Shown here: piece after piece, positions 13,340 to 18,086 of the stretch | Numbering within the stretch: the stretch's first letter is position 1 | How the letters are laid out: each line of letters begins with the position of its first letter | Assembly: GCF_963676685.1 (NCBI RefSeq) | Contig: NC_092357.1 | Coordinates: 55,924,001-55,988,000, forward strand | Length of the DNA stretch: 64,000 nt | Direction of reading: 5' to 3' | Source of the DNA: Mytilus edulis | Taxonomy: Eukaryota | The notes under the pieces: model-generated | What the model was told of the DNA's origin: nothing | Databases searched by the model: none | Seen by the model: only the letters and a program-made list of their open reading frames with translations | Translations under genes and position numbers: made by a program

Positions 13340-13383
13340 GCGTCACTGATGAGTCTTATGTAGACTAAACGCGCGTCTGGCGT
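13340..13383 (+). ncRNA. Type I hammerhead ribozyme (retrozyme family 1), core mutated
   Basis: GCGTCA-CTGATGA-GTCT-TATGT-AGAC-TAAA-CGCGCG-TC-TGGCGT. All stems are intact but the core GAAA has become TAAA (13366). Retrozyme body sequence precedes it from ~13209. Confidence 0.8.
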
Positions 13384-16300
13384 AAATCAAAATTTAACCT
13401 GGTATATATAATGAGATTTTTTGGTACTTCACTGACTTATATCCTTGCTTTCTCTTTACTAATACAAAGTTAAAGGTAAATCAAAATTTAACCTGGTATA
13501 TATAATGTGATATTTTGGTACTTCACTGACTTATATCCTTGCTTTCTCTTTACTAGTACAAAGTTAAAGGTAAATCAAAATTTAACCTGGTATATATAAT
13601 GAGATTTTTTGGTACTTCACTGACTTATATCCTTGCTTTCTCTTTACTAATACAAAGTTAAAGGTAAATCAAAATTTAACCTGGTATATATAATGAGATT
13701 TTTTGGTACTTCACTGACTTATATCCTTGCTTTCTCTTTACTAATACAAAGTTAAAGGTAAATCAAAATTTAACCTGGTATATATAATGTGATATTTTGG
13801 TACTTCACTGACTTATATCCTTGCTTTCTCTTTACTAATACAAAGTTAAAGGTAAATCAAAATTTAACCTGGTATATATAATGAGATTTTTTGGTACTTC
13901 ACTGACTTATATCCTTGCTTTCTCTTTACTAATACAAAGTTAAAGGTAAATCAAAATTTAACCTGGTATATATAATGTGATATTTTGGTACTTCACTGAC
14001 TTATATCCTTGCTTTCTCTTTACTAGTACAAAGTTAAAGGTAAATCAAAATTTAACCTGGTATATATAATGAGATTTTTTGGTACTTCACTGACTTATAT
14101 CCTTGCTTTCTCTTTATTAATACAAAGTTAAAGGTAAATCAAAATTTAACCTGGTATATATAATGAGATTTTTTGGTACTTCACTGACTTATATCCTTGC
14201 TTTCTCTTTACTAATACAAAGTTAAAGGTAAATCAAAATTTAACCTGGTATATATAATGTGATATTTTGGTACTTCACTGACTTATATCCTTGCTTTCTC
14301 TTTACTAATACAAAGTTAAAGGTAAATCAAAATATAACCTGGTATATATAATGTGATATTTTGGTACTTCACTGACTTATATCCTTGCTTTCTCTTTACT
14401 AATACAAAGTTAAAGGTAAATCAAAATTTAACCTGGTATATATAATGTGATATTTTGGTACTTCACTGACTTATATCCTTGCTTTCTCTTTACTAATACA
14501 AAGTTAAAGGTAAATCAAAATTTAACCTGGTATATATAATGAGATTTTTTGGTACTTCACTGACTTATATCCTTGCTTTCTCTTTACTAATACAAAGTTA
14601 AAGGTAAATCAAAATTTAACCTGGTATATATAATATGATATTTTGGTACTTCACTGACTTATATCCTTGCTTTCTCTTTACTAATACAAAGTTAAAGGTA
14701 AATCAAAATTTAACCTGGTATATATAGTGTGATATTTTGGTACTTCACTGACTTATATCCTTGCTTTCTCTTTACTAATACAAAGTTAAAGATAAATCAA
14801 AATTTAACCTGGTATATATAATGTGATATTTTGGTACTTCACTGACTTATATCCTTGCTTTCTCTTTACTAATACAAAGTTAAAGGTAAATCAAAATTTA
14901 ACCTGGTATATATATTGAGATTTTTTGATACTTCACTGACTTATATCCTTGCTTTCTCTTTTCTAATACAAAGTTAAAGGTAAATCAAAATTTAACCTGG
15001 TATATATAATGAGATTTTTTGGTACTTCACTGACTTATATCCTTGCTTTCTCTTCACTAATACAAAGTTAAAGGTAAATCAAAATATAACCTGGTATATA
15101 TAATGTGATATTTTGGTACTTCACTGACTTATATCCTTGCTTTCTCTTTACTAATACAAAGTTAAAGGTAAATCAAAATTTAACCTGGTATATATAATGT
15201 GATATTTTGGTACTTCACTGACTTATATCCTTGCTTTCTCTTTACTAATACAAAGTTAAAGGTAAATCAAAATTTAACCTGGTATATATAATGTGATATT
15301 TTGGTACTTCACTGACTTATATCCTTGCTTTCTCTTTACTAATACAAAGTTAAAGGTAAATCAAAATTTAACCTGGTATATATAATGAGATTTTTTGGTA
15401 CTTCACTGACTTATATCCTTGCTTTCTCTTTACTAATACAAAGTTAAAGGTAAATCAAAATATAACCTGGTATATATAATGTGATATTTTGGTACTTCAC
15501 TGACTTATATCCTTGCTTTCTCTTTACTAATACAAAGTTAAAGGTAAATCAAAATTTAACCTGGTATATATAATGTGATATTTTGGTACTTCACTGACTT
15601 ATATCCTTGCTTTCTCTTTACTAATACAAAGTTAAAGGTAAATCAAAATTTAACCTGGTATATATAATGTGATATTTTGGTACTTCACTGACTTATATCC
15701 TTGCTTTCTCTTTACTAATACAAAGTTAAAGGTAAATCAAAATATAACCTGGTATATATAATGTGATATTTTGGTACTTCACTGACTTATATCCTTGCTT
15801 TCTCTTTACTAATACAAAGTTAAAGGTAAATCAAAATTTAACCTGGTATATATAATGTGATATTTTGGTACTTCACTGACTTATATCCTTGCTTTTTCTT
15901 TACTAATACAAAGTTAAAGGTAAATCAAAATTTAACCTGGTATATATAATGAGATTTTTTGGTACTTCACTGACTTATATCCTTGCTTTCTCTTTACTAA
16001 TACAAAGTTAAAGGTAAATCAAAATTTAACCTGGTATATATAATATGATATTTTGGTACTTCACTGACTTATATCCTTGCTTTCTCTTTACTAATACAAA
16101 GTTAAAGGTAAATCAAAATTTAACCTGGTATATATAGTGTGATATTTTGGTACTTCACTGACTTATATCCTTGCTTTCTCTTTACTAATACAAAGTTAAA
16201 GGTAAATCAAAATTTAACCTGGTATATATAATGTGATATTTTGGTACTTCACTGACTTATATCCTTGCTTTCTCTTTACTAATACAAAGTTAAAGGTAAA

Positions 16301-17707
16301 TCAAAATTTAACCTGGTATATATAATGAGATTTTTTGATACTTCACTGACTTATATCCTTGCTTTCTCTTTTCTAATACAAAGTTAAAGGTAAATCAAAA
16401 TTTAACCTGGTATATATAATGAGATTTTTTGGTACTTCACTGACTTATATCCTTGCTTTCTCTTCACTAATACAAAGTTAAAGGTAAATCAAAATATAAC
16501 CTGGTATATATAATGTGATATTTTGGTACTTCACTGACTTATATCCTTGCTTTCTCTTTACTAATACAAAGTTAAAGGTAAATCAAAATTTAACCTGGTA
16601 TATATAATGTGATATTTTGGTACTTCACTGACTTATATCCTTGCTTTCTCTTTACTAATACAAAGTTAAAGGTAAATCAAAATTTAACCTGGTATATATA
16701 ATGTGATATTTTGGTACTTCACTGACTTATATCCTTGCTTTCTCTTTACTAATACAAAGTTAAAGGTAAATCAAAATTTAACCTGGTATATATAATGAGA
16801 TTTTTTGGTACTTCACTGACTTATATCCTTGCTTTCTCTTTACTAATACAAAGTTAAAGGTAAATCAAAATATAACCTGGTATTTATAATGTGATATTTT
16901 GGTACTTCACTGACTTATATCCTTGCTTTCTCTTTACTAATACAAAGTTAAAGGTAAATCAAAATTTAACCTGGTATATATAATGTGATATTTTGGTACT
17001 TCACTGACTTATATCCTTGCTTTCTCTTTACTAATACAAAGTTAAAGGTAAATCAAAATTTAACCTGGTATATATAATGTGATATTTTGGTACTTCACTG
17101 ACTTATATCCTTGCTTTCTCTTTACTAATACAAAGTTAAAGGTAAATCAAAATTTAACCTGGTATATATAATGAGATTTTTTGGTACTTCACTGACTTAT
17201 ATCATTGCTTTCTCTTTACTAATACAAAGTTAAAGGTAAATCAAAATTTAACCTGGTATATATAATGAGATTTTTTTGGTACTTCACTGACTTATATCCT
17301 TGCTTTCTCTTTACTAATACAAAGTTAAAGGTAAATCAAAATTTAACCTGGTATATATAATGTGATATTTTGGTACTTCACTGACTTATATCCTTGCTTT
17401 CTCTTTACTAATACAAAGTTAAAGGTAAATCAAAATTTAACCTGGTATATATAATGAGATTTTTTGGTACTTCACTGACTTATATCCTTGCTTTCTCTTT
17501 ACTAATACAAAGTTAAAGGTAAATCAAAATTTAACCTGGTATATATAATGTGATATTTTGGTACTTCACTGACTTATATCCTTGCTTTCTCTTTACTAAT
17601 ACAAAGTTAAAGGTAAATCAAAATTTAACCTGGTATATATAATGTGATATTTTGGTACTTCACTGACTTATATCCTTGCTTTCTCTTTACTAATACAAAG
17701 TCAAAGG
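13382..17707. repeat. Tandem satellite, 46 copies of a 94-bp monomer
   Basis: Monomer GTAAATCAAAATTTAACCTGGTATATATAATG(AGATTTTTT/TGATATTTT)GGTACTTCACTGACTTATATCCTTGCTTTCTCTTTACTAATACAAAGTTAAAG. Period 94, near-identical copies, two main variants. Confidence 0.97.
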
Positions 17708-18086
17708 TAAATAAAGGCAACAATAGTAAACCTATATTCAAAGGTCATAAATAGATTGAGAGAAAACAAATCCGGGTTACAAACAAAATCCGAGGGAGCA
17801 CATCAAATATAAGAGGAAAACAACAAACATCAGGAAAACCCTCTAATATACATGGAAACGAACTATTTGATAACAAGTACCATTTTCGATTATTGTTTCT
17901 GGACATTTATAGAAAAATGCCCAAATGCGATAAATCTAAAAAGTATCGAAGGTGAAATTTAGCAACTGTACAAAAGAATGGCTTATTTAAAGTTGAAATC
18001 AATTTAATTCAATTAAATCTAAAATTAAGAAATAGGAATCCATCATACAAGATTGAAACATCGATAATAAAGTAACAAAACAATTT

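Follow-up and report, generated by a model that had tools for sequence, protein, structure and literature searches.

How does a tandem repeat come into being, and does a ribozyme lying beside it have any part in its birth? The question is raised by a stretch of 64,000 nucleotides from Mytilus edulis (NC_092357.1, positions 55,924,001 to 55,988,000; hereafter the window, numbered from its first base), in which a 94-bp sequence stands 46 times in tandem just behind the cleavage site of a hammerhead ribozyme, and once in a paralogous position. The original prediction, made from the sequence alone, was that a circle formed at a short microhomology and was amplified by rolling-circle copying, either as DNA or by the reverse transcriptase machinery of retrozymes and Penelope elements acting on the 3′ cleavage product. 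The analysis set out below points elsewhere. It is likely that the array is a microhomology-seeded, transposon-derived minisatellite, grown by slippage or unequal exchange, to which the hammerhead probably contributed sequence and nothing more.

The array and its single-copy paralogue

The array, its two short arms and the unamplified copy are placed as follows. The 1 Mb sample referred to here and below consists of 100 evenly spaced 10-kb stretches; in it, arrays were taken as repeats of period 25-300 with 5 or more units.

13382..17706, plus strand: tandem array of 46 head-to-tail units, 45 of 94 bp and 1 of 95 bp
13382..13387, plus strand: left microhomology arm GTAAAT, overlapping the 3′ strand of hammerhead stem I and running slightly beyond it
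17707..17712, plus strand: right microhomology arm GTAAAT, whose TAAAT forms the end of a second interspersed repeat (loose-end consensus, 1 Mb sample)
38431..38524, plus strand: unamplified single monomer with the array's flanks kept, carrying A33, T37 and C90 and the private bases A31, A32 and T78

The 46 units differ pairwise by 2.1% on average, and the GTAAAT at 17707-17712 closes the array. Identical arms thus flank the segment in both states, at 13382 and 17707 in the array and at 38431 and 38525 in the paralogue, as is expected of a microhomology-mediated tandem duplication; a microhomology of 6 bp has a chance of ~0.002 at a single junction. Head-to-tail copies at one locus together with a single-copy ancestral state are likewise what a minisatellite should present. 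When the 1.37-Gb genome was searched with the monomer, at least 47 matches were obtained, a lower bound since the search scores best candidates only; these were the 46 units and the paralogue, all in the window, and no copy outside the two loci was among them. In these respects the original prediction holds well: 46 units of 94 bp, a single-copy paralogue at 38431-38524 with the same flanks (borne out both by direct comparison and by the genome search), GTAAAT at both edges of array and monomer, and a start about 5 nt 3′ of the GUC triplet at 13375-13377, the array's first base being the fifth base 3′ of that GTC. Its end coordinate, 17713, is one base too long, although the array itself stands, and a single founding event at the microhomology, with the single-copy state kept in the paralogue, is supported.

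Two element ends supply the arms

The sequences that meet at the array belong to two abundant interspersed repeats, one of them resembling the non-LTR (non-long terminal repeat) retrozymes, and the whole lies within a segmental duplicate.

11333..21139, no strand assigned: array-bearing segmental duplicate of 36289-42944, flank substitutions 5.0% and 5.6%
13207..13418, plus strand: 3′ fragment of an old non-LTR retrozyme copy, comprising hammerhead and ~40-nt tail; its matches in the 1 Mb sample run from about 13207-13209 to 13418
13340..13383, plus strand: type I hammerhead of minimal form, with its GUC at 13375-13377 and TAAA in place of GAAA at 13366-13369; 30 bits, E 0.0023
38389..38432, plus strand: paralogous hammerhead, with GAAA preserved and one base pair of stem III disrupted
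17708..17920, no strand assigned: end of the second of the two abundant interspersed repeats, with 26 copies aligned from the 1 Mb sample

The last ~37 bases of the retrozyme fragment form the start of unit 1, and the unit's remaining ~57 bp are spacer. On the other side, 21 of 43 sample matches to the second repeat start at 17704-17713, so that the array's right edge is a repeat terminus. The two elements end 94 bp apart and each supplies one GTAAAT; both ends were in place before the segmental duplication. On the minus strand the second repeat ends in TTTATTTA (window 17708), as the retrozyme tails do (13418), and this shared end may reflect a shared mobilising enzyme; no hammerhead was noticed in the majority string of the second repeat's copies.

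The flanking element is abundant. An exact 12-base hammerhead core has 31,220 matches in the genome against 33 for a control, which puts the retrozyme copies at 31,220 or more, and a fuzzy version of the core finds 45 copies in the 1 Mb sample. Judged from plus-strand lines and from repeat periods, copies mostly stop ~40 nt after the GUC, and at 6 of 30 loci the family is in tandem with a period of 357-365 bp. With its type I hammerhead, units of ~350-390 bp and occurrence as both monomers and tandem multimers, the ~360-bp element fits the mussel non-LTR retrozymes, which are grouped here with such hammerhead satellites as newt satellite 2, by length, tandem habit and hammerhead type (PMC7229834; bioRxiv 10.64898/2026.07.22.740005). 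The 94-bp unit contains the tail of such an element and is itself no retrozyme. By definition a retrozyme has a hammerhead in its units (bioRxiv 10.64898/2026.07.22.740005) and its monomers, running from cleavage site to cleavage site, measure 170-400 nt (PMC7229834), whereas the unit described here is 94 bp long, lacks positions +1 to +4 of the cleavage product and contains no hammerhead in the Rfam scan of the array. It cannot, in consequence, process itself into monomers or circles, and, with at least 47 matches all within the window, it has not spread to new loci.

Four type I hammerheads are reported by Rfam in the window, at 27-30 bits and all under the gathering score of 34; those beside the array and in the paralogue reach 28-30 bits against RF00163. 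Further copies of the same retrozyme families lie at 26494, 26818-26861 and 46984-47027. The prediction had contrasted the loss of GAAA beside the array with its retention in the paralogue, and the bases are indeed TAAA and GAAA, but the paralogous hammerhead is also damaged, in stem III. Such decay is familiar in the family, as GAAA is lost in 8 of the 45 sampled hammerheads and the whole core is intact in 22. The predicted RNA fold of the array-side region, in which a core base is changed, is not a hammerhead and is no better than shuffles, and none of the folds of three hammerhead regions and the monomer beats shuffles.

Stepwise growth, probably from a dimer

The order of variants along the array records how it grew. 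Units fall into two interspersed types: type A (A33, T37, like the paralogue) has 17 members, unit 1 among them, and type B (T33, A37) has 29, including unit 46. Two block duplications are also preserved; neither types nor blocks, nor the second repeat at the right edge, had figured in the original prediction.

13382..14321, plus strand: 5-unit block duplication, units 1-5 against 6-10, 1 difference in 5 pairs
14228..17141, plus strand: 15-unit (1410 bp) block duplication, units 10-25 against 25-40, 4 differences in 16 pairs

Of 14 rare variants 7 occur in more than one unit, for the most part at lag 15, and eight rare variants are common to units 15 apart, a number that 0 of 20,000 permutations reach (P<5e-5). 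Because of the 15-unit block duplication and the two interspersed unit types, we conclude that growth was stepwise, by in-register duplication, and not one rolling-circle burst. A rolling-circle concatemer would consist of identical units with only later private changes; what is found is that copy number changed in steps and unit variants turned over, as is characteristic of minisatellites; the signs are the block duplications and a major unit type that differs between sequencing runs (see below).

The pattern that had suggested a circle lies at position 90, where all 45 units before the last have T, and unit 46 (17702) and the paralogue have C. The claim that the internal junctions are uniform holds for T90, although one junction reads GTTAAAGA, unit 16 starting with A. 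When in-register growth was simulated from a dimer whose copy 1 was presumed already to carry T90, T90 inside with C90 in the last unit was obtained in 55-68% of runs (2,000 runs in each of 5 settings). C90 persists in the last unit because only 10 bp separate base 90 from the point where homology stops; the T90/C90 pattern is the usual edge effect and no circle is needed. Terminal repeats are described as escaping exchange and homogenisation in the ribosomal DNA spacer of Daphnia (PMC3036644), and there is a likeness in that the last unit here keeps the ancestral base near the edge and the first unit the ancestral type, whereas the escape is visible at one base only, 10 bp from the tract's end. 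With lag-15 and lag-5 shared variants, interspersed types and an edge pattern that can be simulated without a circle, rolling-circle amplification is left unsupported.

The course of events may be pictured as follows. Misalignment of the GTAAAT arms, during replication slippage or in flap or break repair, would have produced the first dimer, whose perfect 94-bp homology would then have permitted in-register gains and losses. In the course of these T90 would have spread to all units but the last, where base 90 could be replaced only by an exchange breaking within the tract's last 10 bp. An array born after the segmental duplication fits the data, because the difference between units (2.1%) is below that between the paralogues, with the qualification that homogenisation can hide age. 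The array-bearing duplicate has two minus-strand open reading frames (ORFs) broken or deleted, against ORFs of 254 and 318 aa that are open in the other copy, and the array may be tolerated because it is located between two decaying gene copies.

There are precedents for such a course. In bacteria and fungi more than 90% of multi-copy tandem duplication loci are reported to carry microhomology arms, and the model leading from microhomology-mediated duplication to tandem repeats is credited there to Haber and Louis (PMC13167724). As at those loci, a single-copy segment lies between short arms, the last arm closes the array and the single-copy state persists; unlike them, the window array is of 94 bp x 46, stands in an animal genome, takes its arms from the ends of interspersed repeats and has its unamplified state in a paralogue. 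The maize arrays CRM1TR and CRM4TR (PMC3648361; review PMC9659126) similarly have a unit that starts in a retroelement end, a short-homology junction and later homogenisation, whereas the unit here is a non-LTR retrozyme tail plus host spacer and occupies one locus of 4.3 kb, with no sign of a centromeric position. Tandem arrays are moreover common in this genome (13 in the 1 Mb sample), which also speaks for a minisatellite.

A circle at the first event?

It is unlikely, though the best of the alternatives, that a 94-bp DNA circle was joined through GTAAAT, copied by rolling circle and reinserted at its own locus, later unequal exchange accounting for the rest. Microhomology marks circle junctions too, all internal units share T90, and later turnover could mask the circle step. 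The variant pattern, however, requires stepwise exchange regardless, so that the circle adds nothing, and the genome search, itself a lower bound, shows no monomer beyond the locus and its paralogue. A double-stranded circle of 94 bp is also under the usual bending limit of ~100-150 bp.

Is the hammerhead more than a bystander?

A role for the ribozyme would require more. Here a plus-strand transcript would be cut by the hammerhead and its 3′ product copied into its own locus by a Penelope-type reverse transcriptase, giving the first duplication, or else the array by way of circular RNA; we regard this as very unlikely. Retrozymes are thought to be moved by a Penelope-like reverse transcriptase (PMC7229834; bioRxiv 10.64898/2026.07.22.740005), which counts in its favour, as does the position of the left breakpoint, between +5 and +11 of the GUC. 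Duplications of 133 bp and 36 bp also rejoin at +5, as the window array does, and a second family of arrays, on C14, begins exactly at +1, with a 5-bp microhomology, TGGCG. This latter family was found by pattern match and is the best case for a ribozyme origin.

L152:4629-6717, minus strand: C14 50-bp array
L153:5084-5691, minus strand: C14 50-bp array
L154:3800-4754, plus strand: C14 50-bp array

These three paralogous arrays, near 0.97, 1.13 and 2.19 Mb, have ~42, 12 and 19 copies of a 50-bp unit that consists of the retrozyme tail and 12 bp of flank and starts at +1 of a decayed hammerhead. In its general form the idea would be that reverse transcription of cleaved retrozyme read-through RNA duplicates tail and host flank and so seeds ribozyme-free satellites, the window array (+5 to +11) and the C14 arrays (+1 to +6) being two independent products; this, too, we hold to be very unlikely.

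Locally, the window unit has neither a ribozyme nor a second cleavage site, whereas a retrozyme circle depends on having one at either end (PMC7229834); TGGC, with which the cleavage product opens, is missing from the junction; the neighbouring ORFs are on the minus strand; and both local hammerheads are damaged. The association that the prediction expected between young arrays and hammerheads is also missing from the genome at large. The 1 Mb sample contains 13 arrays of at least 5 units (3 of them cut by stretch ends), 47 duplications and 45 hammerheads, and no array (0/13) or duplication (0/47) is within 150 bp of any of the 45. By chance ~8 arrays (4-14) should start within 10 bases behind a cleavage site genome-wide, an upper estimate for local births because it counts element-spread satellite families; 2 such events were found, the window array and the C14 family. 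Among 19 tail-containing duplications behind hammerhead-bearing copies, a small set read by eye with the window array excluded, in which some cases may be truncated tandem insertions, 4 start at +1 to +10 against 3.3 expected (P=0.43), a result compatible with a two- to three-fold enrichment. The exact +1 duplication pattern has 4 matches in the genome, at three C14 loci with common flanks, and hence represents one event, while its -11 control occurs at 2 loci, as adjacent truncated copies that are not clean duplications; per Mb there are 9 and 19 occurrences of the two patterns' motifs. Of 44 fragments in the sample that carry a tail, none has its first base at +1 to +5. With the association null in four tests, the ribozyme and reverse transcriptase link is unsupported, and the neighbouring hammerhead is probably a bystander.

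One of the four tests is a survey of the places at which other retrozyme-derived arrays begin. Doubled-motif searches took their motifs from the tail, the core and the region upstream; these motifs are similarly abundant (34,575, 31,220 and 27,385) and gave 50 + 111, 75 and 121 matches. Among the matches listed (the best 100 of 111, the best 100 of 121 and, in a further search, the best 100 of 148) are at least 12 retrozyme-derived arrays with 5 units or more. Two of them begin directly 3′ of the cleavage site, 3 begin inside the core, 4 contain tail fragments that no hammerhead immediately precedes, and 3 are confined to sequence 5′ of the site. The last are arrays of 65 bp x 75 on C6, 32 bp x 20 on C8 and 28 bp x 37 on C1; others lie across the site. 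Four arrays of doubtful origin, at C2:4.09, C5:97.1 with C9:87.8, C8:69.2 and C10:79.6 Mb, were left out of the 12.

Several considerations nevertheless weigh against a microhomology-seeded minisatellite. Besides the C14 start at +1, the repeated rejoining at +5, the upper-bound nature of the chance figure and the smallness of the 19-case set, folding provides no structural cause in the DNA for the site of the breakpoint, since hairpins at either breakpoint are no stronger than shuffles (z -0.5 to +1.0 in 6 of 6 folds). The growth simulation demonstrates sufficiency only. The block duplications record later growth, with which a small circle or reverse-transcription step at the first event is compatible, and later exchange could hide such a step. 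Finally, A33, T37 and C90 in the paralogue are equally expected from an older array that collapsed between its first and last unit.

The array in public sequencing runs

Eight public runs were compared with the locus as short-read contigs, whose depth is no copy number; shares of 0.2-0.3 in the run search, which may stem from repeats, were set aside. Amplification appears in 6 of the 8, under three organism codes (A, B and D), one or two of these runs possibly being the assembly's own source. In X1 and X16 it takes the form of a 124-nt contig with 94 bases matching (a self-overlapping loop of 94+30), at depths of 52.8 against 4-13 and of 1961 against 68-201 for single-copy neighbours. X2 and X3 have a joint that goes back 94 bases (depth 42 and 35 against ~6), in X17 a single contig attains a depth of 87 against 2-7, and X4 reaches 50 against 6.7 for the paralogue-type contig. 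An assembly artefact responsible for all or most of the array is scarcely credible: depth ratios of ~4 to 20 do fall below 46, but the self-overlapping contigs, the 94-back joints, the excess depth in X4 and X17 and the ordered private variants within the array all contradict it. The array is thus confirmed as real, the exact number 46 resting on the assembly.

X1 and X3 have A as their major unit type, X2, X16 and X17 have B; T33/T37, an intermediate, is the major type in X4 and a minor one in X3. On account of this intermediate we reject the notion that the founding dimer already had type A fixed in one copy and type B in the other. X5, in which a single unbroken 137-nt contig has no joint, is possibly an unamplified allele, a suggestive reading only, as the flanking letters are not displayed; raw reads of X22 (~3 in 100 of the run) have almost no depth on the spacer and none on the unique flanks, and are uninformative on an empty allele.

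Other arrays and other features of the window

Retrozyme sequence is found in tandem at many further loci. The 65 bp x 75 array at C6 19.80 Mb (L155) is made of sequence 5′ of the cleavage site and ends inside the hammerhead core, and L067, L113, L123, L133, L150, L151, L156, L157 and L058 are arrays of retrozyme fragments with units of 28-80 bp in 6-37 copies; L067 has a higher-order period of 5 units, 144 bp. Three paralogous loci at C1 27.2-27.5 Mb (L052, L054, L055) have 2 or 3 tails 133 bp apart, rejoining at +5 GTAAAT, and look like a deleted retrozyme dimer that was duplicated later. Background arrays (L081-L100, L191-L270), at 13 per Mb, include 73 bp x 43, 54 bp x 81 and 223 bp x 45.

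Within the window, 23562-24680 holds 3.2 copies of a 351-bp unit at 97% identity, with an inverted relative at 39937-40394. A hammerhead-like core was read in it by eye and was not reported by Rfam at E up to 1; the unit is probably a third, young retrozyme family. A tandem family of minus-strand ORFs (11485-12171, 20315-21123, 36438-37202, 41934-42890 and 47567-48178) has 35-40% mutual identity, with none of the five matched in Pfam and no match in the Atlas; its members next to the array are the broken ones. A non-LTR retrotransposon ORF, split by stops into three successive pieces and matching reverse transcriptase (E 4.5e-14), occupies 32229-34904 on the minus strand. A 122-aa open frame at 569-937 on the plus strand has a weak match, under the curated cut-off, to PF15633 (ADP-ribosyltransferase-like), and a near-perfect 31-bp inverted repeat at 31535-31601 has an Rfam microRNA match far under the gathering score.

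Significance

Collectively, the window array is a clean but ordinary minisatellite birth of a known kind, and no new ribozyme-to-satellite route is shown by it; among the papers listed by literature searches there was none on ribozyme-free arrays made of retrozyme tails. A ribozyme route, if true, would tie RNA self-cleavage to the birth of satellites. The locus has value as a teaching case, since ancestor, both arms, donor elements, block duplications and a frozen last unit are all found within 64 kb, and, given the differences in the array from one individual to another, it could be used as a marker or as a model locus for minisatellite turnover. For this genome the wider meaning is that at least 12 separate arrays with 5 units or more were seeded by retrozyme fragments, and that these fragments come from every part of the element.

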